Below, one piece after another: positions 6,727 to 16,753 of a stretch of 64,000 nucleotides of DNA. The notes beneath the pieces are model-generated. The model was given only the letters and a program-made list of their open reading frames with translations, did not search any database and was not told where the DNA came from. Each line of letters starts with the position of its first letter. The stretch's first letter is position 1. The stretch covers positions 38,339 through 102,338 of the forward strand of contig JAFGHL010000093.1 in the NCBI GenBank assembly GCA_016930155.1, given 5' to 3'. Made by a program: the position numbers and the translations under genes. This DNA comes from Dehalococcoidia bacterium (GTDB taxonomy: Bacteria; Chloroflexota; Dehalococcoidia; GIF9; UBA5629).

Positions 6727-7023
6727 TCAAAACCGGCCCTGGTTGACTCTGGACCTGAGCCTCTCAATACGCCTATCGAGGCTATCTATTCTAAGCTTTA
6801 ATGCGTTAATCGACTGTGCCAAGTCTGAGCCTGAAACCGGCGCAAGTTCTGTTAAGGCTCCCCGGGGGCAGACATCGATACAGAGGCGGCAATGATTGCA
6901 TCGGTTATGGTCTATCTGAACCCCATCCCGGCTTAGAGAGATAGCTCCCGTCGAGCAGATCTGCTCACATAGCCCGCATCCCAGGCATAGGGATTTCCTG
7001 ACTTCGACTACTGTATTATTCAC
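6727..7023 (-). CDS. 2x[4Fe-4S] ferredoxin-domain protein with a C-terminal coiled-coil tail
   Basis: CLGCGLCEQIC and CNHCRLCIDVCP, then a heptad-like tail DLAQSINALKLRIDSLDRRIERLRSRV. Confidence 0.75.
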   Translation of the reverse strand: MNNTVVEVRKSLCLGCGLCEQICSTGAISLSRDGVQIDHNRCNHCRLCIDVCPRGALTELAPVSGSDLAQSINALKLRIDSLDRRIERLRSRVNQGRF

Positions 7024-8178: not shown

Positions 8179-8460
8179 TTATTCTCCGATATGTACTCGT
8201 CCCCAAATAGCCAGTGACCTTGCCAGCGAGTCGATCTCCTCCGGCTTTTTCGCCTTAGCCGCGGAAAAACAAAACCTGAAATAGTTATTTAATACCAGTG
8301 CTCCGACATTTTCAATTGCGGAACGTACGGCAGCCAACTGAGTTAATATGCTCTCACAATCACGGCCATCCTCGATCATTTTCTGCAAGCCGCGTGACTG
8401 CCCCTCGATTTTTTTGAGCCGATTAATTAACTCATCCCTGGATATCTCTTTTCTAACCAT
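8179..8460 (-). CDS. CsoR/RcnR-family (DUF156) metal- or persulfide-sensing repressor, of the CstR-like C...C type
   Basis: 93 aa. LINRLKKIEGQSRGLQKMIEDGRDCESILTQLAAVRSAIENV is the family signature. Cysteines at positions 35 and 64, with Tyr rather than His at position 60. Confidence 0.8.
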   Translation of the reverse strand: MVRKEISRDELINRLKKIEGQSRGLQKMIEDGRDCESILTQLAAVRSAIENVGALVLNNYFRFCFSAAKAKKPEEIDSLARSLAIWGRVHIGE

Positions 8461-8489
8461 AAAAACTCCGCCTTATCCTAAATACGTTT

Positions 8490-8518
8490 TTGCTTACTAT
8501 ACCCCGGTAGGGTATAAT
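8490..8518 (+). promoter_or_regulatory. Promoter TTGCTT-17 nt-TATAAT for the oxidoreductase gene
   Basis: -35 at 8490-8495 and -10 at 8513-8518, with a spacer of exactly 17 nt. Confidence 0.55.
8498..8516. promoter_or_regulatory. CsoR-type operator, inverted repeat TATACCC-5 nt-GGGTATA
   Basis: 7-nt perfect arms in the divergent csoR-like/oxidoreductase intergenic region, overlapping the spacer and the -10 of the promoter at 8490-8518. Confidence 0.65.
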
Positions 8519-8571
8519 TCCCGAAGCCCATTTATATCACTATTATATTATGAGAAGGAGCTAACTATAAA

Positions 8572-9924
8572 ATGGAGAGACACGAACTGGTTATAGTGGG
8601 AGGCAGCGCCGGTGGTATTCAGGCATCGATTTGTGCTCAGCGGCATCACGGCCTGAAAGACATCCTGGTTATACGCATTGAAGAAAAAACAATGGTTCCC
8701 TGCGGCATCCCCTATATCTATGGAACTTTAGGCGCTGTAGAGAAAAATATCATGCCCGCTTCCCTCCTCGGAGAAGCAACGCTGAAAATAGGAGAGGTCG
8801 TATCTATTGATCGCAAAGCAAAGACAGTTTCGCTTAAAGATGGTGAAAAAATAGGCTATGACAAGTTGGTTTTGGCCACTGGGTCTGATCCTATGAAACC
8901 GCCTATACCGGGCATAGATAAAAAGAATGTCTGGTTTGCCTGGAAAAATACCGACTACCTTGGAGACCTTGCACAGGCAATTGAAAATATTGGTGATATT
9001 GTTGTTATCGGCGGCGGGTTCATAGGGTTGGAATTTGCTGACGAGTGCCGCAAAAAAGGACATAAGATAACCGTGGTAGAAATGCTGGAGCATTGCTTGC
9101 AGCAGGTATGTAACTCCGACCTGTGTATCCGGGCAGAGGAAGCGCTGAAAGGAACCGGCGTGAATATTATTACTTCCAACGGAGTGAAATCGATTAACGG
9201 CAAGAGTAAAGTTGAGTCGGTAACTTTACAAAACGGAGATACTGTCAAATGCGACCTGGTGATCAACGGCATCGGTGTGATTCCCAACGTAAAACTGGCA
9301 AAAGACGCAGGGCTGGAAATCGGCCCAACGGGTAGTATCAAAGTTGATGAGTTCCAAAGAACCACTGATACCAATATCTTTGCGGTCGGCGACTGCGCCG
9401 AAAAATACTCTTTCTTCAATGGATTGCCCGTGCCTATCAGATTAGCTTCTGTAGCGACGCGAGAGGCCAAAATAGCCGCAGCCAACCTTTATCAGCCGCA
9501 ATGGCGCAATATTGGAACGATCGGCGTATTTTCAACAGTTGTAGCCAATACAGCCATGGCCATGGCAGGCTTAACCGATACCAAAGCCCGCGAGTTAGGC
9601 TATGATGTTATTGTCGGTGAAGCCCAGGCTGCTTCCAAACATCCCGGCACCATGCCCGATGCGCATCCTATGAAAGTACGTCTGGCCTTTGACCGCAGGT
9701 CAGGTAAAATACTGGGGGGCTGCGCCTGCTGTACTCAAAGCGTCGGTGAAGTAGTGAATTTAATCGCATCTGCTATAGTTAACGAAATGACCATGGAACA
9801 AATTGCCATGTTCCCCATGGGAACCCATCCATGGCTCACCGCTTCACCTCTGGTCTATCAATTTACCGATGCTGCCAGCAACGCAATTCACAATGTAAAA
9901 AATTCAGCGCGGGTACAAACATAA
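8572..9924 (+). CDS. Pyridine nucleotide-disulfide oxidoreductase of the CoA-disulfide reductase / NADH oxidase type (single active-site Cys)
   Basis: VIVGGSAGG FAD motif, the single redox Cys in TMVPCGIPY, a second dinucleotide motif VVIGGGFIGLE, and GDCA. AGGAG RBS. Confidence 0.8.
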   Translation: MERHELVIVGGSAGGIQASICAQRHHGLKDILVIRIEEKTMVPCGIPYIYGTLGAVEKNIMPASLLGEATLKIGEVVSIDRKAKTVSLKDGEKIGYDKLVLATGSDPMKPPIPGIDKKNVWFAWKNTDYLGDLAQAIENIGDIVVIGGGFIGLEFADECRKKGHKITVVEMLEHCLQQVCNSDLCIRAEEALKGTGVNIITSNGVKSINGKSKVESVTLQNGDTVKCDLVINGIGVIPNVKLAKDAGLEIGPTGSIKVDEFQRTTDTNIFAVGDCAEKYSFFNGLPVPIRLASVATREAKIAAANLYQPQWRNIGTIGVFSTVVANTAMAMAGLTDTKARELGYDVIVGEAQAASKHPGTMPDAHPMKVRLAFDRRSGKILGGCACCTQSVGEVVNLIASAIVNEMTMEQIAMFPMGTHPWLTASPLVYQFTDAASNAIHNVKNSARVQT

Positions 9925-10118
9925 TCGTTATTGCCATTAACATTTTGTGTGTCCGTCCTGATCATATGTCTGATTAAGGCAAGTAAAATCGCTGGTTTGC
10001 CGGTATTCTGATTTGTCCATGGCAGGCATCTCTTTATGCACTGCCTTCAGCAAATCAAGAATGCCCCTTGCCTGTCCGACTCTATATTCAAATCTGCTTG
10101 AAACACATTATCATCGAT

Positions 10119-10147
10119 TTGACACGGCTATTAAGTCGATCTATACT
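10119..10147 (+). promoter_or_regulatory. Sigma70-type promoter TTGACA-17 nt-TATACT for the DUF134 operon
   Basis: -35 at 10119-10124, a 17-nt spacer, and -10 at 10142-10147. Confidence 0.65.
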
Positions 10148-10149
10148 CA

Positions 10150-10169
10150 TTATGAGCATATGCTCATAA
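10150..10169. promoter_or_regulatory. Perfect 20-nt palindrome TTATGAGCATATGCTCATAA (operator O2)
   Basis: Read directly. Begins 3 nt after the -10 hexamer and ends 20 nt before the DUF134 start codon. Confidence 0.8.
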
Positions 10170-10188
10170 TAAAGAGGATAAAACTGAT

Positions 10189-10662
10189 ATGCCGAGGCCG
10201 ATAATATGCCGCCGCGTTACCTTCCTTCCGGGAGCTACTTACTTTAAACCGGCGGGAATACCCCTGCAATTCCTGCAAGAGGTGCGCCTGTCGCTTGAAG
10301 AAGCTGAGGCCATCCGGCTCAAGGACATTGAAAACATGGATCAGGAGCAGGCGTCACTTCACATGAACGTATCACGGCCTACCTACCAGCGGATATTGGA
10401 ATCGGCCAGGAAAAAGTTAGCTGATGCACTGTTGCATAGCAAGGCCATCAGGATCGAGGGCGGCAATGTCGAAATTATACCGCAGCGTTACGTTTGCGAA
10501 AACGGCCACCAGTGGGATGTGCCTCTTGAACAGGCCATGGCGGAACCGCTGCAGGCATGCCCTGTTTGCAATACCACCGCACCAGGTTTGCTGACAGAGA
10601 TTAATTTAACCCGAGGGCGCGGAAGAGGGGGCAGGTGTCATCGAGGAGGACCAAGTCGCTGA
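10189..10662 (+). CDS. DUF134 (UPF0251) predicted DNA-binding protein with a C-terminal Zn-ribbon-like segment and an RG-rich tail
   Basis: The N-terminus MPRPIICRRVTFLPGATYFKPAGIPL and LSLEEAEAIRLKDIENMDQEQASLHMNVSRPTYQRIL are the classic DUF134 pattern. CENGH...CPVC follows, and the tail is RGRGRGGRCHRGG. Confidence 0.8.
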   Translation: MPRPIICRRVTFLPGATYFKPAGIPLQFLQEVRLSLEEAEAIRLKDIENMDQEQASLHMNVSRPTYQRILESARKKLADALLHSKAIRIEGGNVEIIPQRYVCENGHQWDVPLEQAMAEPLQACPVCNTTAPGLLTEINLTRGRGRGGRCHRGGPSR

Positions 10663-10706
10663 AATGGTCGGTCAGCGTGTATTGAGAATGCAAAAGGAGG
10701 TGAACA

Positions 10707-10973
10707 ATGCCCTACGGAAGAGGCTACGGAATGAGAGGAGGTTTCAGAGGAGCCTATGCTGCGTGGCCGTATATCGGCCGCGGGCGTGGAGGCCTTCCCA
10801 GGTGCGGGTATTACTTCGATTACCCGACTTACTATATGCCCGCTTATCAGGCTGAAGCGCCCGCTACCGCAAATTATGATCTGGGCGACCTGAAAAACAC
10901 CGTGGCCACCTTGAAAGAAAGGCTGGCACGGATGCAGGCAACGATCAGCGAGATAGAACGGCAGAGGTCTTAA
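10707..10973 (+). CDS. DUF5320-like small RG/Y-rich protein with a C-terminal coiled coil
   Basis: MPYGRGYGMRGGFRG...GGLPRCGYY with the tail LKNTVATLKERLARMQATISEIERQ. AGGAGG RBS. Confidence 0.7.
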   Translation: MPYGRGYGMRGGFRGAYAAWPYIGRGRGGLPRCGYYFDYPTYYMPAYQAEAPATANYDLGDLKNTVATLKERLARMQATISEIERQRS

Positions 10974-11036
10974 CCAGCCCAAATATTTTCACTTCCCACT
11001 ATTTCCTGAAAAAATAAAACCAAAGGAGGGTTTAAA

Positions 11037-11297
11037 ATGCCAGGATTTGATGGAACCGGGCCAAGGGGTCTTGGCCCCATGACAGGTGGAGGAAGGGGTT
11101 TTTGCGTAACACCGGCAGGCAATGTCGGCGCCTACGGGCGCGGCTTTGCATCCCGCGGCTACGGACCGGCTTATGGGCCGGTTTACCAGGCGCCTGCCAA
11201 TCAGCAGGAAATCGATCAGATTAGAAACGATTTTAACCAGTTGTTAAATGAGCTTCAAAATCTGGAGGCAAGGATCAATCAAATGGAGAAACGTTAA
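11037..11297 (+). CDS. DUF5320 family protein
   Basis: Canonical N-terminus MPGFDGTGPRGLGPMTGGGRGFC and a coiled-coil tail LLNELQNLEARINQMEK. AGGAGG RBS. Confidence 0.8.
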   Translation: MPGFDGTGPRGLGPMTGGGRGFCVTPAGNVGAYGRGFASRGYGPAYGPVYQAPANQQEIDQIRNDFNQLLNELQNLEARINQMEKR

Positions 11298-11345
11298 CCC
11301 GGGTATTGCCGGACGGGCTAAATAGACAGATAAAGGGGGTAAAAC

Positions 11346-11711
11346 ATGAAATTAGCAGTGACCGCCACCGGACCCGGTCTTGATGCCGATGTCGATCCGC
11401 GCTTCGGCAGGTGCAAATACTTCATTTTCGTTAACCCGGATACGCTGGAGTTTAAAGCAGTGGATAACACACCCGCCGGTGGAGGCGCCGGGATCGCCGC
11501 AGGCCAGCTTTTGGCATCACATGGGGCACAGGTATTGCTCACCGGTGATTGTGGTCCCAATGCCTATCAGGTCCTATCGGCGGCCAATATTCAGGTGATA
11601 ACCGGCATATCCGGCAAGGTTATGGACGCGATTAATGCGTACAAAGCCGGCCAATTCAAGGCCATCAGCCAGCCCAGCGTCCAGCCTCACCACGGTTTAA
11701 CTACTAAATAA
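11346..11711 (+). CDS. NifX/NifB-C-terminal-like (dinitrogenase FeMo-cofactor binding domain) protein
   Basis: MKLAVTATG...VDPRFGRCKYFIFVN...GAQVLLTGDCGPNAYQVL is typical of COG1433 proteins. Confidence 0.8.
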   Translation: MKLAVTATGPGLDADVDPRFGRCKYFIFVNPDTLEFKAVDNTPAGGGAGIAAGQLLASHGAQVLLTGDCGPNAYQVLSAANIQVITGISGKVMDAINAYKAGQFKAISQPSVQPHHGLTTK

Positions 11712-11746
11712 TACAGAGCATTGACTATTAATAAAGGAGGTTTATC

Positions 11747-11992
11747 ATGCCCAGAGGAGATATGACAGGACCGCCAGCCGGAGGCGGCAGAGGTGGAGGT
11801 CGCGGCGCCGGCCAGGGTGGAGGAGGCAGGGGAATGAGAAGCGGCGGCAGGATGGGTGGCAACCGTCCCGGAGCAGGGCCGGGCGGAGATTGCGTTTGCC
11901 CGAGCTGCGGCGCAAGAGCGCCGCACCAGGTAGGCCAGCCCTGCTACAGCATTAAATGCCCTAAATGCGGCGCCGCCATGGCGAGAGCATAG
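11747..11992 (+). CDS. DUF5320-like G/R-rich protein with a C-terminal Zn ribbon instead of a coiled coil
   Basis: MPRGDMTGPPAGGGRGGGRGAGQGGGGRG..., then CVCPSCG...CPKCG. AGGAGG RBS. Confidence 0.7.
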   Translation: MPRGDMTGPPAGGGRGGGRGAGQGGGGRGMRSGGRMGGNRPGAGPGGDCVCPSCGARAPHQVGQPCYSIKCPKCGAAMARA

Positions 11993-12835
11993 ATGATTAT
12001 ATCGGTTGCCAGCGGCAAGGGGGGAACGGGCAAGACACTGGTTGCCACCAGCCTTGCCCTTTCCCTCGGCAATACGTGCAGGGTTCAGTTGCTCGATTGT
12101 GACGTCGAGGAGCCCAACGACCACCTGTTTATCAGGCCTGTTATTACCGACCGCGAGACGGTCTGCATACCCGTGCCGAAGGTTGACTACAACAGGTGTA
12201 CTTTTTGCGGCGACTGCGCACGAATCTGCGCCTATAAGGCCATCGCCGTAGTGCCCAAAAGCGTTCTCGTGTTTGATCAGCTCTGCCACGGCTGCGGCGC
12301 CTGCAGCTACCTCTGCCCCGAAAAGGCTATCACGGAAGAGGGGCACGAAATCGGAGTGGTTGAGTCCGGCCGGGCCAATGGCATAGCGTTCGTCCAGGGC
12401 AGGTTGACCGTCGGCGAGGCCATGGCTACGCCGGTAATACGACGGGTCAAGACCAGGATCGATCACGCCGCAACAGCCATACTGGATGTGTCACCGGGCA
12501 CCTCCTGCCCCGTGGTAGAGGCTGTGCGGGACAGCGATTACTGCCTGCTCGTTACCGAACCCACCCCCTTTGGTCTGCACGACCTTGAGCTGGCGGTGCT
12601 AACGGTCAAACAATTGGGCATTCCCTGCGGCGTGATCGTCAACCGCGCTGTACCGGGAGAAGATATGGTGCAGTCTTACTGCTCCCGTGAAAATATTCCC
12701 GTTCTGCTTGAGATACCACTGGACAGGGATATCGCTCGCCTTTATTCGAATGGACAAACTCTGGCAGAGGGCATGCCTCAGTGGCAGGACAGGTTTAAAG
12801 ACGTTTACACCAGTATTACAAGGAGCCGTACATGA
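11993..12835 (+). CDS. MinD/ParA-superfamily P-loop ATPase with an inserted 2x[4Fe-4S] ferredoxin domain (COG1149-like)
   Basis: Deviant Walker A SGKGGTGKT. CTFCGDCARIC and CHGCGACSYLCP. Confidence 0.85.
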   Translation: MIISVASGKGGTGKTLVATSLALSLGNTCRVQLLDCDVEEPNDHLFIRPVITDRETVCIPVPKVDYNRCTFCGDCARICAYKAIAVVPKSVLVFDQLCHGCGACSYLCPEKAITEEGHEIGVVESGRANGIAFVQGRLTVGEAMATPVIRRVKTRIDHAATAILDVSPGTSCPVVEAVRDSDYCLLVTEPTPFGLHDLELAVLTVKQLGIPCGVIVNRAVPGEDMVQSYCSRENIPVLLEIPLDRDIARLYSNGQTLAEGMPQWQDRFKDVYTSITRSRT

Positions 12836-13689
12836 AAGAAGTCGTTGTACTTAGCGGCAAAGGCGGAACTGGGAAGACAAGCATTACCGGCTGTTTCGCA
12901 GTCCTGGCGCGCAATAAAGTGCTGGCGGATTGCGATGTGGACGCGGCCGACCTGCATCTGTTACTCAACCCTGAGGTCAGGCGCACGGAGGAGTTCTGGA
13001 GCGGCCAAAGCGCCTGTATCGACGAAAATATCTGCAACGGCTGCGGCCTGTGCGAGGAGATATGCCGTTTCGATGCTATCAGGAACCTGAAAGTGGATCC
13101 CACCGCCTGTGAGGGTTGCGGCTTTTGCTCCCGCATCTGCCCGGTCGAGGCTATCAGCATGCTGAACAACCTTGCAGGACACTGGTATATCTCCGATACA
13201 AAGTACGGATCCCTGGTGCATGCGCGACTGGGCATAGCACAGGAGAACTCGGGCAAGCTGGTGGCGCTGGTCCGGCAGCAGGCCAGGCAGCTTGCAGAAT
13301 CAGCACAGCACACATCTATTATCACAGACGGCCCCCCGGGCATCGGCTGCCCGGTGATATCTTCACTGTCCGGCGCCGACCTGGCGCTGCTGGTGACTGA
13401 GCCGACCGTATCAGGCATCCACGACCTGGAGCGTGTCATCGATGTCTGCCGGCATTTTCAAGTGCCGGCCACAGTATGCGTTAATAAATATGACATCAAT
13501 GAGGAAAAAGCCTCTGAGATCAAGCGGTATTGCACGAACAACGGCATCCAGGTTGCCGGGGAGATACCCTTTGATACCAGTGTAAACCAGGCGGTTACAC
13601 TCGGCCTGCCGCTGGTGGAGTATAATGATGGGCCGGCGTCCCGCGCCGTCAAACAGCTCTGGAATAATTTGGAAAAGTTTTTTCAATAA
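12832..13689 (+). CDS. MinD/ParA-superfamily P-loop ATPase with an inserted ferredoxin domain (paralog)
   Basis: SGKGGTGKT, CNGCGLCEEIC and CEGCGFCSRICP. 4-nt overlap with the previous gene. Confidence 0.85.
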   Translation: MKEVVVLSGKGGTGKTSITGCFAVLARNKVLADCDVDAADLHLLLNPEVRRTEEFWSGQSACIDENICNGCGLCEEICRFDAIRNLKVDPTACEGCGFCSRICPVEAISMLNNLAGHWYISDTKYGSLVHARLGIAQENSGKLVALVRQQARQLAESAQHTSIITDGPPGIGCPVISSLSGADLALLVTEPTVSGIHDLERVIDVCRHFQVPATVCVNKYDINEEKASEIKRYCTNNGIQVAGEIPFDTSVNQAVTLGLPLVEYNDGPASRAVKQLWNNLEKFFQ

Positions 13690-13710
13690 ATTAATTTAGG
13701 GGAGCCATAT

Positions 13711-13956
13711 ATGCCTATTTATGACTATGCCTGCGCCGCCTGCGGTACCCGCTTTGAGCATATGCAATCGGGCGCGGAAATCAAAGGCCTTACCTGCCCC
13801 TCCTGCGGAAGCGGTTCCGTGAGCAAACTCATTTCCATCCCCGGTTTAATTAAAGCAGGCAGTGAACCGCGCGGGGGAAAGACTTGCTGCGGCCGGGAGG
13901 AACGCTGTGATAAGCCCCCATGCTCCAACGAGGGCAGTTGCTATCGCGGCCTTTAA
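13711..13956 (+). CDS. FmdB-family zinc-ribbon protein with a Cys-rich tail
   Basis: MPIYDYACAACGTRFE...CPSCGS is the FmdB signature. The tail is TCCGREERCDKPPCS. Confidence 0.8.
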   Translation: MPIYDYACAACGTRFEHMQSGAEIKGLTCPSCGSGSVSKLISIPGLIKAGSEPRGGKTCCGREERCDKPPCSNEGSCYRGL

Positions 13957-14052: not shown

Positions 14053-14391
14053 ATGAAATTTGCCATACCGGTAAACAACGGCGTTCTATCGGCGCACTTC
14101 GGCCATTGCGAGCAATTTGCGCTGATCGAAGTTGATGAAAAAAATAAGAGCATACTTCACAAGGAATTGGTTGCCTCACCAGGGCATCAGCCGGGATTTT
14201 TGCCTCCGTGGCTGGCCAAGCAAGGTGTACAGGTGGTCATCGCCGGCGGCATGGGCGGCAGCGCCATATCTCTCTTTCAGCAAAACGGCATCAACGTACT
14301 GCTGGGAGCGCCGGCTATCGATCCTGAAAAAGTCGTGATCGACTATCTAAATGGCAACCTGGTGTCTGGCGACAACCGTTGCGACCATTAG
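14053..14391 (+). CDS. NifX/NifB-C-terminal-like cofactor-binding domain protein (paralog)
   Basis: MKFAIPV...SAHFGHCEQFALIEVD...GVQVVIAGGMG. Confidence 0.8.
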   Translation: MKFAIPVNNGVLSAHFGHCEQFALIEVDEKNKSILHKELVASPGHQPGFLPPWLAKQGVQVVIAGGMGGSAISLFQQNGINVLLGAPAIDPEKVVIDYLNGNLVSGDNRCDH

Positions 14392-14443: not shown

Positions 14444-14896
14444 ATGCGCGTCAGCAGGGAAGAATATCAGCAGATACTTGAATCAGAGCTACACAAAACT
14501 TGCAGCGAGAAGACTGTAGACCATGCTCTAAAGCCAAGGAACATGGGTAGTATAGAGGTCGCCAGCGGTTACGCTTATATAACAGGCCCCTGTGGAGATA
14601 CCATGGAGATCTGGCTGAGCGTTGATAACCAGATCATAGAGCAAGCCACTTTCATAACTGATGGCTGCATAACCACCATAGCTGCAGGAAGCATGATCAC
14701 GGAGATGGCTAAAGGCAAGCCGGTGGAAGAAGCCATGCAGATCGGCCAGCAGGATATATTAAAGGCTTTAGACGGCCTGCCGGAGGAAAGCGAGCATTGT
14801 GCCCTGCTGGCGGCCAACACGCTCAAAGAAGCAATCCTGGATTATTATGAGTACAGCCGCGATAAGTGGAAACGCAATTATAAGAAACAATGGTAG
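14444..14896 (+). CDS. IscU/NifU-N-terminal-like Fe-S scaffold protein
   Basis: Three scaffold Cys in the conserved contexts GPCGDTM, DGCITT and EHCALLA. Confidence 0.8.
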   Translation: MRVSREEYQQILESELHKTCSEKTVDHALKPRNMGSIEVASGYAYITGPCGDTMEIWLSVDNQIIEQATFITDGCITTIAAGSMITEMAKGKPVEEAMQIGQQDILKALDGLPEESEHCALLAANTLKEAILDYYEYSRDKWKRNYKKQW

Positions 14897-15736: not shown

Positions 15737-16753
15737 ATGATAACTGCGGAACAAGTAAAGGACAGGCTCGATGAGGTCATCATTCCTCACGTTATACGTA
15801 GCCTGACTTTAATGAATCTGATACGTGATATCACAATAACTGATGACTCGGTAAAAATCGCTCTGGCTTCAGCCGGACTGGATGAATATTCGCAGAAATG
15901 GATTACAGAAAAAATCGAAGAATCTTTGAAAGGCCTGCACGATATAAAAAACATCAGCATCGACTATATTGATTCCAAACCCCTTGATTTAAATAAAGTC
16001 GGCAGTGTAATAGCCGTAATGAGTGGCAAAGGCGGTGTAGGCAAGTCGCTGGTCAGCAGCATCACAGCCGTCGCACTGAGAAGGGAGGGATTTGAAGTCG
16101 GGATACTCGATGCTGATATTACCGGCGCCAGTATACCAAAGATGTTCGGTATAACGGAGCGGCCTGGAGGAAACGAGAGCGGCATATTGCCGGTAACGTC
16201 CAAATCAGGTATTGAGATCATGTCGATTAATCTTCTATTGCCCAGCGAAGATGAAGCTGTCATATGGCGCGGTCCGCTTATAGGCAAGGCCATCACGCAA
16301 TTCTGGGAAGAAGTTCTCTGGGGCCGTCTGGACTATTTAATTGTCGACCTGCCACCCGGCACTGCCGATGCCCCGCTTACCGTAATGCAATCACTGCCGA
16401 TCTCGGGTGTTATAGTCGTGTTTACGCCGCAGGATTTGACGGCTATGATCGTGAGGAAGGCGGTTAAGATGGCCAGGCAGATGAATAAAAAGATACTGGG
16501 TGTCGTCGAGAATATGAGCTACCTTTACGTCAAGGAGATCGATAAGAAAATTGAGCTTTTCGGAAAAAGCAGGGGAGAAGAAATGGCAACAGAGGCGGGG
16601 GCGCCGTTGCTGGGGAAAATACCGGTTGATCCCGATTTGGCCGCCCTTTGCGACGCCGGGCATATCGAGCAATACCAATCCGATCTCGTTGAGCAAATAG
16701 GCAAGTCGCTTCTGTCGTCACTCTCCTTGAAATCTTCCGAAACCGGGAGATAA
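15737..16753 (+). CDS. apbC: Mrp/NBP35 (ApbC) Fe-S cluster carrier ATPase with an N-terminal DUF59 domain
   Basis: VMSGKGGVGKS Walker A, DLPPGT, and the Mrp signature region VVENMSY. The N-terminal ~80 aa are DUF59-like. Confidence 0.85.
   Translation: MITAEQVKDRLDEVIIPHVIRSLTLMNLIRDITITDDSVKIALASAGLDEYSQKWITEKIEESLKGLHDIKNISIDYIDSKPLDLNKVGSVIAVMSGKGGVGKSLVSSITAVALRREGFEVGILDADITGASIPKMFGITERPGGNESGILPVTSKSGIEIMSINLLLPSEDEAVIWRGPLIGKAITQFWEEVLWGRLDYLIVDLPPGTADAPLTVMQSLPISGVIVVFTPQDLTAMIVRKAVKMARQMNKKILGVVENMSYLYVKEIDKKIELFGKSRGEEMATEAGAPLLGKIPVDPDLAALCDAGHIEQYQSDLVEQIGKSLLSSLSLKSSETGR

Follow-up and report, generated by a model that had tools for sequence, protein, structure and literature searches.

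Small Arg/Gly-rich proteins encoded downstream of a DUF134 regulator gene, together with NifX-like proteins and MinD-type ATPases, in a Dehalococcoidia bacterium

Described systems and the layout of the locus

Iron and sulfide storage and traffic in strict anaerobes is a poorly understood field, and many strict anaerobes lack ferritin-type chemistry that is sensible without oxygen. To our knowledge, IssA is the sole sulfide-based iron store described, and it is known from one archaeon. IssA (SipA, PF2025) of Pyrococcus furiosus is an iron-sulfur storage protein forming thioferrate-protein nanoparticles, in which thioferrate binding was assigned to the cationic Gly/aromatic tail (PMC5524996). 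According to Vaccaro et al., such tails are recognized by a pI of 9 or higher, a Cys count below 5 and a Gly content of 20% or more among the 40 C-terminal residues. The second system of relevance is the orange protein (ORP) complex of Desulfovibrio vulgaris Hildenborough, encoded by the orp operons (PMC6345978, PMC3897727).

The window, i.e., the whole stretch of 64,000 nucleotides of contig JAFGHL010000093.1 analyzed here, contains a gene cluster in which the gene of a DUF134 regulator is followed by three small ORFs, designated sA, sB and sC. The cluster comprises the following features (positions in the window):

10119–10147, + strand: promoter-like site TTGACA-17-TATACT, 11 of 12 consensus matches, upstream of the DUF134 gene
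10189–10662, + strand: DUF134 regulator with HTH core, C..H..CPxC ribbon-like motif and RG tail (10606–10662); PF02001, 76.6 bits
10707–10973, + strand: sA, 88 aa, treated as a divergent DUF5320 protein
11037–11297, + strand: sB, 86 aa, canonical DUF5320 protein
11346–11711, + strand: NifXl1, tail-less NifX-like (Nitro_FeMo-Co, 'Di-Nase') protein; PF02579, 80.3 bits
11747–11992, + strand: sC, 81 aa; the stop codon abuts the start of ATPase 1
11993–12835, + strand: ATPase 1, MinD/ParA-family P-loop protein with an inserted 2x[4Fe-4S] ferredoxin domain (Orp3/Orp4 type); matches to PF01656, PF10609 and Fer4 families
12832–13689, + strand: ATPase 2, MinD/ParA family with 2x[4Fe-4S] insert; 4-nt overlap with ATPase 1
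13711–13956, + strand: FmdB zinc ribbon, downstream part of the conserved set
14053–14391, + strand: NifXl2, resembling the MrpORP C-terminal domain; 125.7 bits on the C-terminal part of NF041136 MrpORP
14444–14896, + strand: NifU/IscU-like scaffold, downstream part of the conserved set
15737–16753, + strand: Mrp/NBP35, downstream part of the conserved set
6727–7023, − strand: by its sequence, 2x[4Fe-4S] ferredoxin with C-terminal helix

The promoter-like site is likely the start of a single transcript reaching at least position 13689; no terminator-like site was found on the + strand from 10189 to 13700. The original prediction had described an RG-rich end of the regulator, the Arg/Gly-rich beginnings of the three ORFs, their coiled-coil or zinc-ribbon ends and strong ribosome-binding sites, and all four sequence features were found at the positions given; the ribosome-binding sites, from which high expression was surmised, are AAGGAGG, located 6–7 nt upstream of ATG in sA, sB and sC. 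Genes of a CsoR/CstR-like repressor and of a CoA-disulfide-reductase-like protein adjoin the cluster, and the reductase-like gene recurs in relatives.

The cluster shares with the ORP system a pair of MinD-type ATPases of the Orp3/Orp4 type, each with a 2x[4Fe-4S] insert, NifX-like proteins consisting of one domain as in Orp8 (NifXl1 and NifXl2), and an Mrp/NBP35 carrier together with a domain similar to the C-terminus of MrpORP, although MrpORP is here split into Mrp and NifXl2. The ORP genes form two divergent operons dependent on sigma-54 and the enhancer-binding OrpR, whereas here the genes are co-directional, the promoter is sigma-70-like and the DUF134 gene is the first; no gene of the OrpR type was found among the cluster genes scanned against Pfam and NCBIfam. 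Moreover, no DUF5320-type proteins are reported in the published description of the five-protein ORP complex.

Arms and tails of the small proteins

Protein sB, starting with MPGFDGTGPRGLGPMTGGGRGFC, matches the DUF5320 family profile PF17253 with 57.6 bits (E=3e-15, profile positions 1–93), above the gathering cut-off of 27 bits, and has the architecture of the family, namely, the head MPxxDGTGP..G.GP.TG.G.G.C, a low-complexity linker and a C-terminal helix. Its 23-residue head, MPGFDGTGPRG(L/M)GPMTGGGRGFC, is near-invariant, contains one Cys and is followed by a variable Gly/Tyr/Pro/Arg linker and the helix. Residue C23 is invariant in 14 aligned sequences, and the full head motif with Cys is present in 97 of 108 orthologues. 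In the AlphaFold model, residues 1–53 are unstructured, while residues 54–85 form a helix with pLDDT of about 84.

The N-terminal part of sA, MPYGRGYGMRGGFRG...GRGRGGLPRCGYY, belongs to a Gly/Arg/aromatic arm (residues 1–56, net charge +4, 23% F/W/Y) with the invariant block WPY.GRGRGGLPRC(G/S)Y, which contains one Cys; a C-terminal heptad helix follows the arm. Residue C33 is invariant in the alignment of the sA family, and GLPRC was found in 45 of 62 orthologues. PF17253, suggested in the original prediction as the family to search for, was the right one to test; it gave 24.2 bits with sA (profile positions 17–99), just below the cut-off, and did not detect sC of the window. Since alignments of sA and sB were matched by hhalign with 99.5% (E=7e-23, 83 columns), sA was treated as a divergent DUF5320 member, sharing the helix with the family and differing from the family head in its Cys block.

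Protein sC begins with MPRGDMTGPPAGGGRGGGRG... and ends with ...DCVCPSCG...H...PCY...CPKCG. Its arm (residues 1–47) consists of MPRGDxTGP and a Gly/Arg tract with net charge +6 and 64% G+R, and the C-terminal part is a zinc ribbon, C-x-C-P-x-C-G...H...P-C-Y...C-P-x-C-G, in which six Cys and one His are invariant in the alignment. The AlphaFold model gives pLDDT below 50 for residues 1–45 and beta-hairpins with pLDDT of 85–89 for residues 46–80; Foldseek retrieved generic zinc ribbons only. Most of its 1,915 relatives are unannotated, and PF17253 is flagged on 6 of the best 120. The hhalign match of sC to sB covers the head only (53% over 19 residues); sC shares with DUF5320 the start of the head, has no helix, and its ribbon lies outside the model. 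Judged by these comparisons, sC lies outside DUF5320 and combines a related arm with a different body.

A fourth type of arm protein, designated sD and having a (G-aromatic-G-R)n tail, was found in relatives. The suggestion of a module swap was borne out, as the MPxxDxTGP...GRG arm is combined with a coiled-coil tail in sB, a zinc ribbon in sC and the repeat tail in sD. Disordered arms joined to a folded or helical tail are predicted for sB and sC, and coiled coils, also expected from the start, agree with the AlphaFold helix in sB and with hydrophobic residues at 8 of 9 heptad a/d positions (0.89) in each of sA and sB. The lone conserved Cys attributed to every arm was found in sA and sB, but not in sC, which has six Cys, nor in the DUF134 tail, where Cys is not conserved. 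The three arms have pI of 9.5–12 and G+R content of 30–64%; aromatic residues make up 23% in sA, 13% in sB and 0% in sC, with one Cys each in sA and sB. The sB arm is only mildly cationic, with a charge of +3 over 53 residues.

When the six-frame ORFs of the whole genome with a length of 60 aa or more (10,848) were ranked by RG/GR density in a 30-residue window, sA, sC and the DUF134 tail each fell within the first ten. Long spurious frames arise from GC-rich repeats, an example being the antisense ORF of 259 aa at 11687–12466, and sA, sB and sC could in principle be untranslated, chance frames in Gly-codon-rich DNA. Against this, dN/dS values computed with orthologues of the same genus indicate purifying selection (0.16–0.39 for sA, 0.21–0.27 for sB and 0.10–0.14 for sC, i.e., 0.10–0.39 overall, vs. 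0.07–0.14 for the neighboring NifX-like gene), thousands of homologues have invariant residues, ribosome-binding sites are of the consensus type, and gene order is kept across about 50 loci. The chance-frame explanation is refuted in practice, and its probability is negligible.

Conservation of the cluster and its fusions

The gene order DUF134-(sD)-sA-sB-NifXl1-(FmdB)-sC-ATPase1-ATPase2 was found in 15 loci of relatives and 34 metagenome loci. The small proteins with Arg/Gly-rich arms belong to a widespread gene set of anaerobes. The view that such proteins are rare in bacteria was not supported, since sC by itself has over 1,900 relatives, counted as clusters at 90% identity, and fused forms occur in thousands; likewise, three in tandem, regarded as striking in the original prediction, is nothing unusual, because this gene cluster regularly contains 3–5 such genes in tandem.

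The NifXl1 gene lies directly 3' of sB in 34 of 38 loci, and NifXl1 is the probable partner of sA and sB. NifXl1 of the window has no tail, while 44 of 75 orthologues contain a (G-M-G-R)n repeat and a DUF5320-type helix, both matching the family; none of these 44 fused tails contains Cys. A paralogue in the same genome, C37, consists of a NifX-like domain, (GRGMG)n and a DUF5320 helix, and its gene adjoins another sB with no ATPase nearby. Homologues of C37 number 6,932, and PF02579 and PF17253 occur together in about 110 of the best 120.

The DUF134 regulator ends with ...TRGRGRGGRCHRGGPSR, three residues beyond the string quoted in the original prediction. The RG-rich tail is kept in 38 of 44 cluster orthologues, and such tails were found in 46 of the best 150 DUF134 representatives. 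Cys is present in the tail in only 16 of the 44 cluster orthologues and in 15 of the 46 RG-tailed proteins among the best 150 representatives. Hence, the expectation that Cys and the RG tract are conserved in orthologous clusters stood for sB and, with GLPRC in the majority of orthologues, for sA, but failed for the Cys of the regulator tail. Eight of ten long DUF134 representatives examined are fusions of DUF134 with Nitro_FeMo-Co, and one fusion of DUF134 with an sC-type ribbon was found among long representatives.

The sample for co-occurrence analysis consisted of 151 genomes of the phylum, 14 of them DUF5320-positive. DUF5320 was accompanied by the ATPase in 13 of these 14 genomes (Fisher p=3.8e-15) and by the Di-Nase domain in all 14 (p=1.2e-8). 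In agreement with the proposal that copy number co-varies with the adjacent ATPases, more copies are present where ATPases are more numerous (Spearman 0.71, n=13). At the level of loci, 31 have both sC and ATPase, four have neither, three have ATPase without sC and none has sC alone (p=4.7e-4); the distance from the sC stop to the ATPase 1 start mostly ranges from −4 to +9 nt.

Comparison with IssA and competing explanations

IssA and this cluster have in common a NifX-like domain (IPR003731/PF02579) and appear to share a disordered cationic Gly/Arg/aromatic segment with one Cys. In IssA, the domain and the tail form one polypeptide, whereas sA, sB and sC have no PF02579 domain, which is supplied by the adjacent NifXl1 gene, itself without a tail in the window; the arms here are encoded by separate genes and are joined to an oligomerizing helix or a zinc ribbon. 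Taken literally, the criteria of Vaccaro et al. do not apply, since the arms of sA, sB and sC are N-terminal and located on separate chains. IssA has no counterpart of the sequence-invariant 23-residue head of sB, and no MinD-ferredoxin ATPases, present in this cluster, were seen in the IssA loci fetched. Thioferrate has been demonstrated in Pyrococcus only.

The orthologues of IssA in Thermococci consist of a Di-Nase domain, a Pro-rich linker and GWGRGRGRGFGRGWGRGGRGWGARLGYC... with one Cys. The G-aromatic-G-R repeat is common to IssA tails, sD tails and many DUF134 tails. The hhalign matches of the IssA tail to sD (96%, 28 columns) and to sA (43%) rest on a low-complexity repeat, so that their significance is inflated and homology is unproven; PF17253 gave an insignificant 15.3 bits (E=0.045) with the tail of one of three IssA orthologues. 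The domains of IssA score 55–63 bits on the NifXl1-group HMM vs. 32–37 bits on the NifXl2-group HMM. Further products of the Thermococci IssA operons are a small arm protein, 'MPRGMGRG...', and another Di-Nase protein, whose tail is (GRGMG)n, and one IssA locus contains DUF134 (86.6 bits) with an N-terminal MPRGMGWGRGRG arm. True DUF5320 was found in 2 of 41 genomes of the sampled order of Thermococci, where the fetched IssA orthologues bear their own tail.

It is proposed that the operon, controlled by DUF134, handles metal and sulfur and that sA, sB and sC are its conserved small subunits. Most likely, they would help the NifX-like carriers and MinD-type ATPases to hold or pass on inorganic iron-sulfur material, as the IssA tail does. 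The more specific explanation, that they are separately encoded arms of the IssA type in a cluster combining ORP-type ATPases with an IssA-type carrier, is adopted tentatively, with confidence slightly short of even. The flexible, cationic Gly/Arg/aromatic (or Met) arms, which in sA and sB end in one invariant thiolate, would be counterparts of the C-terminal tail of IssA and would cap or wrap anionic inorganic Fe-S species (thioferrate-like or thiometallate) held by NifXl1. The C-terminal helices of sA and sB, patterned like the helix of tailed NifXl1 orthologues and of the neighboring ferredoxin, could zip the arms into a hetero-oligomer. Protein sC, whose translation is coupled to that of ATPase 1 and which does not occur without ATPases, may dock its arm onto the MinD-type Fe-S ATPases, which would load or unload the cluster. 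The DUF134 regulator may read the state of the same ligand, since it bears the same kind of arm and is elsewhere fused to a whole NifX-like domain or an sC-type ribbon.

Three functions had been offered for the arms, and the fusions with NifX-like domains and the resemblance to IssA favor the cluster- or metal-handling arm as the best supported of them. The mild charge of the sB arm speaks against the explanation by IssA-type arms, and the near-invariance of the sB head points to a defined contact surface for a protein or ligand, unlike the loose electrostatic wrapping suggested for IssA. Because the fused tails contain no Cys, the thiolate is unneeded for whatever the repeat itself does, and the coexistence of tailed NifXl1 and free arms in many loci indicates that the arms do not merely substitute for a tail that has been lost.

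The small proteins, and sC in particular, might alternatively be partner or activator peptides of the MinD/ParA-type ATPases, comparable to ParG, the ParB N-terminus and MinE, with the flexible Arg arm stimulating hydrolysis in the dimer and the folded or oligomerizing tail serving as an anchor. ParG consists of a disordered cationic arm and a small folded domain, an architecture which sC appears to share, and in all these cases a small protein whose N-terminal arm is flexible and bears Arg is encoded beside a deviant Walker-A ATPase. The abutting or overlapping sC and ATPase 1 genes in nearly all loci, the lack of sC in loci without ATPases (31 vs. 0) and the relation of DUF5320 to the ATPases in occurrence (13 of 14 genomes) and copy number (rho=0.71) agree with such a role. 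However, proteins of the sA and sB types adjoin NifX-like proteins without a nearby ATPase (C37; loci L047 and L005), the fusions join the NifX-like domain and not the ATPases, and sC is absent from three ATPase-bearing loci. Sequence searches gave no similarity to any known activator; sC resembles ParG, the ParB peptide and MinE in neither sequence nor fold, its arm is far more Gly-rich, and the cluster has no context of DNA segregation or division. An activator role is considered unlikely.

The RG arms could also be nucleic-acid binders of the RGG-box type, with sA–sC acting as co-regulators or as RNA/DNA chaperones together with the DUF134 repressor, whose tail would contact DNA. The arms are cationic (pI 9.5–12), a tail of this kind is found on the DNA-binding DUF134 protein in 38 of 44 orthologues, one DUF134 is fused to an sC-type ribbon, and a DUF134 protein and a DUF5320 protein of Methanosarcina mazei were flagged, by motif alone, in a survey of archaeal G-quadruplex-binding motifs (PMC7565180). 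The similarity to eukaryotic RGG/RG proteins (FUS, nucleolin tails), i.e., RG/RGG repeats among aromatics and predicted disorder, is compositional only; here, there is no RNA-binding domain, and the invariant Cys and Met- or aromatic-rich repeats, atypical of RGG boxes, occur in a prokaryotic metal-cluster context. The conserved neighborhood contains no nucleic-acid-related genes, the fusions are to a metal-cluster-binding domain, the sB arm has only five Arg, and the same repeat in IssA was assigned to an inorganic polyanion (PMC5524996), so that this function is quite improbable. Very doubtful is the role of a persulfide sulfur carrier, in which the single Cys on a swinging arm would deliver sulfane sulfur from a sulfide or polysulfide source to NifU/Mrp scaffolds in the manner of SufE or the TusA loop, the RG tract being a flexible spacer only. 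The absence of Cys from fused tails, the strongly conserved G-x-G-R periodicity, superfluous in a spacer, and the lack of a rhodanese, TusA-type or cysteine desulfurase partner in the conserved set speak against it, in spite of the invariant Cys in each of sA and sB, the adjacent genes of a CstR-like repressor and CoA-disulfide-reductase-like protein, and the NifU-like and Mrp scaffolds in the same cluster.

Within the explanation by IssA-type arms, the free arms (sA, sB and sD of relatives), the NifX-like carrier and the two redox-active MinD-type ATPases could assemble and take apart an iron-sulfide store in bacteria, in the form of a thioferrate-like polymer or a condensate of protein and mineral corresponding to the IssA particles of Pyrococcus, with sC coupling the ATPases to the store. 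The DUF134 repressor would then read the fill state directly, since it bears the same arm or, in fusions, the whole NifX-like domain. Such a store is a speculative possibility with a low probability. Thousands of anaerobic bacteria and archaea possess this gene set, in which an IssA-type carrier, ORP-type ATPases and a dedicated regulator are connected by one shared, portable Gly/Arg arm. Should an inorganic Fe-S polyanion be the ligand of the arms, sulfide-based iron storage would be extended to bacteria, the uncharacterized families DUF5320 and DUF134 would obtain a function, and a prokaryotic RG-rich disordered protein would have mineral, not RNA, as its polyanion partner. In the full-text literature search, the name DUF5320 appeared only in two unrelated papers, and no experiment on any DUF5320 protein was found.

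The helix of the ferredoxin encoded at 6727–7023 has the pattern L..L..(Q/R)(I/L)..L..R(I/L)..L, the same as in the tails of sA and sB, and genes of its homologues are located between DUF134 and sA in several loci. The ferredoxin is a possible member of the same coiled-coil assembly as sA and sB.

Operon organization and reality of the small genes

Seven closely spaced genes are transcribed in one direction at 10189-13689. These include sA, sB and sC, three small proteins with Gly/Arg arms encoded 3' of the DUF134 regulator, and NifXl1, one of the two NifX-like (PF02579, Nitro_FeMo-Co) proteins of the cluster.

Genes of the operon at 10189-13689
10189-10662, + strand, DUF134 regulator, C-terminal end TRGRGRGGRCHRGGPSR
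10707-10973, + strand, sA, 88 aa
11037-11297, + strand, sB, 86 aa
11346-11711, + strand, NifXl1, NifX-like protein without a tail
11747-11992, + strand, sC, 81 aa
11993-12835, + strand, MinD-type ATPase 1 with an inserted 2x[4Fe-4S] domain
12832-13689, + strand, MinD-type ATPase 2 with an inserted 2x[4Fe-4S] domain

Genes for an FmdB zinc ribbon, the second NifX-like protein NifXl2, a NifU-like scaffold and Mrp/NBP35 are located 3' of ATPase 2. A promoter-like site close to the consensus was found at 10119-10147, and AAGGAGG lies 6-7 nt 5' of the ATG in each of sA, sB and sC. The scan of the operon region detected no terminator on the + strand 5' of 13700, and the Rfam scan of 9900-12200 matched no families, indicating no riboswitch or leader there.

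Within the operon, a promoter-like site, TTGACT-16-TATCAT (10/12 matches), is present at 11721-11748, with the end of its second hexamer on the start codon of sC. It may serve the ATPase genes as an internal promoter, or the match may be due to chance. An antisense ORF at 11687-12466 (- strand; 259 aa, Ala/Gly/Pro-rich), overlaps sC and the beginning of the ATPase 1 gene; opposite such Gly-rich coding DNA, the frame is most likely spurious. Genes for a CsoR/CstR-like repressor and a CoA-disulfide-reductase-like protein are located at 8179-9924, just 5' of the operon, and several relatives (L038, L041, L051 and L090) likewise have CoADR-like genes next to the cluster, which fits a link with reactive sulfur.

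In comparisons with orthologues of five congeneric genomes, dN/dS was 0.16-0.39 for sA, 0.21-0.27 for sB, 0.10-0.14 for sC and 0.07-0.14 for NifXl1. These values, together with conservation, exclude chance ORFs; by this sequence evidence, sA, sB and sC are real genes. Among the 10,848 six-frame ORFs of the genome, sA, sC and the DUF134 tail belong to the top ten in RG/GR density, while the first rank is held by a related protein from C37, another contig of the same genome. Against one relative (L043), dS was 0.20-0.25 for sA and sB and 1.0-1.8 for DUF134, NifXl1 and sC; accordingly, the sA-sB cassette (10707-11297) looks to have been exchanged recently between members of the genus.

Family membership and conserved neighbourhood

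The original prediction linked the small proteins to PF17253 (DUF5320). This held for sB, which matched over its full length with 57.6 bits, whereas sA scored 24.2 bits, under the cut-off of 27, and sC gave no match to the Pfam HMM. Profile-profile comparison joined sA to sB (99.5%); the likeness of sC to sB was limited to the first 19 residues (MPRGDxTGP.G.GP.TG; 53%). Relatives of sC number 1,915, nearly all without annotation, with names from Dehalococcoidia, Chloroflexi and Syntrophobacterales; in the 20 of these that were aligned, the arm has fixed Gly/Arg/Met positions and the C-x-C-P-x-C...H...P-C...C-x-x-C block is invariant. No significant matches were found in the PDB sequence search with sB or the sC profile, and full-text literature searches returned 'DUF5320' only in two unrelated papers and nothing relevant for 'DUF134'.

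Motifs were counted in 100-plus sequences from related loci. Conservation of the Cys and the RG tract was borne out for sB, with a complete head including Cys in 97/108, and for sA, with GLPRC kept in 45/62; in DUF134 the RG-rich tail is present in 38/44, but the tail Cys in just 16/44. Among the best 150 DUF134 representatives at 50% identity, 46 carry an RG tail. The lone Cys ascribed to each protein does not apply to sC, which instead contains a multi-Cys/His block (complete in 51/55). A fourth arm type, sD, occurs in relatives, without a copy in this window; its head, MPFGDGTGPMG.GPMTGR.AGFC, is followed by (G-F/Y/W-G-R)n and a last residue W.

RGG-type proteins had been considered rare in bacteria, and three in tandem striking; however, the neighbourhood is conserved rather than unusual. 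DUF5320 matches were found in 24/40 genomes of relatives, often as 3-7 tandem copies, and Methanosarcina acetivorans and Thermotoga maritima, among the control genomes, also exceed the Pfam cut-off for the family. The order DUF134-(DUF364)-(sD)-sA-sB-NifXl1-(FmdB)-sC-ATPase1-ATPase2-FmdB-NifXl2-Mrp/NifU is kept in 15 loci of relatives and in 34 metagenome loci (4 kb or longer). Among 151 genomes of the phylum, 14 encode DUF5320 and 16 the ATPase; both occur in 13, adjacent every time (p=3.8e-15), and a NifX-like domain accompanies DUF5320 in 14/14. DUF5320 copies are more numerous where there are more ATPases (rho=0.71, n=13). NifXl1 directly follows sB in 34/38 loci. Both sC and the ATPases are present in 31 loci, neither in 4, and sC without ATPases in none; the distance from the sC stop to the ATPase 1 start is -4 to +9 nt in most loci. 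From this linkage we infer the NifX-like protein to be the partner of sA and sB, and ATPase 1 that of sC.

Predicted structure and comparison with IssA

AlphaFold2 models based on family alignments agree with the disordered segments and helical tails originally proposed: sB is predicted to be unstructured at 1-53 with a single helix at 54-85 (pLDDT about 84), and a/d positions are hydrophobic at 8/9 in the sA and sB helices. In the sC model, residues 1-45 are disordered and a beta-hairpin knuckle at 46-80 is confident (pLDDT 85-89); Foldseek against the PDB returned generic zinc ribbons only (E 0.4 or worse). The arms are cationic, with net charges of +4 (sA), +3 (sB) and +6 (sC). Small 2x[4Fe-4S] ferredoxins having a C-terminal helix with the Leu/Ile spacing of the sA/sB tails are encoded in the window at 6727-7023 (- strand), at L041 14539-14841 and at L052 1002-1265; several metagenome loci have a ferredoxin gene of this kind positioned between DUF134 and sA.

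IssA, the iron-sulfur store protein of Pyrococcus furiosus, consists of a NifX-like domain and a disordered cationic Gly/aromatic-rich tail with the only Cys of the protein; wrapping of anionic thioferrate by the tail is its authors' proposal (PMC5524996). The published IssA PCR primer gave 0 matches in an exact search of genome contigs; its degenerate form recovered four Thermococci orthologues, P. furiosus itself not being among the contigs found. The Thermococci tails (...GWGRGRGRGFGRGWGRGGRGWGARLGYCPW...GWW) share the G-aromatic-G-R repeat with sD tails and many DUF134 tails. Comparison of sD with the IssA tail by hhalign gave 96% over 28 columns; since the repeat is of low complexity and PF17253 gives scarcely any match to the IssA tail, shared chemistry is established, and homology is not. 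Pairwise BLASTP did not separate NifXl1 and NifXl2 as matches of IssA (26.2 and 25.8 bits); group HMMs placed IssA domains closer to the NifXl1 group.

In Thermococci, a conserved 70-76-aa protein with an RG-head arm and a membrane helix, matching no Pfam family, is encoded directly 3' of IssA at L007 4877-5089 and L009 2654-2884 (head MPRGMGRG...GRG) and at L008 1347-1559 (MLRGFGR...); its gene is followed by that of another NifX-like protein, which has a (GRGMG)n tail. In a Thermococcus DUF134 (L007 263-610, - strand; 86.6 bits), the RG arm, MPRGMGWGRGRG / MPRGMGWGRGRGRRR, is at the N-terminus, not the C-terminus; some 3.7 kb separate this gene and the IssA operon. FeoAB is present at another Thermococci IssA locus, and true DUF5320 is rare in the order (2/41 genomes).

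Domain fusions and interpretation of the arms

Contig C37 encodes a 228-aa protein comprising a NifXl1-type domain, (GRGMG)n and a DUF5320 helix. About 110 of the best 120 of its 6,932 homologues contain both PF02579 and PF17253, their tails consisting of G-M-G-R/G repeats in variable number. DUF134 is fused to a whole Nitro_FeMo-Co domain in 8/10 long representatives examined (P0316, P0321, P0248, P0251, P0256, P0328, P0330 and P0361) and, in the sole case of P0376, to an sC-type Cys/His ribbon that follows an RG/Cys stretch. These fusions suggest that the regulator may sense the ligand of the fused domain.

The best-supported reading is that sA, sB and sC would be separately encoded IssA-type arms, in an operon uniting an IssA-type carrier with ATPases of the type of the Desulfovibrio vulgaris orange protein complex (ORP; PMC6345978); a family assignment of DVU2105 / DVU2107 was not found in the literature searched. 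Caveats to this reading are the lack of Cys in the fused tails and the presence of free arms and tailed carriers side by side in many loci. The near-invariant sB head suggests a specific interface and not loose electrostatic wrapping. A serious rival for sC is a role as partner of the ATPase, given its linkage with those genes. The cationic arms may possibly bind nucleic acid, and a persulfide relay by the arms is also possible. A eukaryote-like RNA-binding protein was rejected on the basis of the context and fusions, which are those of metal-cluster genes. A RiPP precursor or bacteriocin was likewise rejected: there are no maturation genes, and each tail is a conserved helix or ribbon.

The fusion locus on C37 (L005 7952-8971, - strand) is the second DUF5320 locus of the genome, and an sB paralogue (89 aa) directly precedes the fusion. 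No MinD-type ATPase is encoded nearby, and the surrounding genes encode thioredoxin-like proteins, a thioredoxin-reductase-like protein and a Fur-family regulator.
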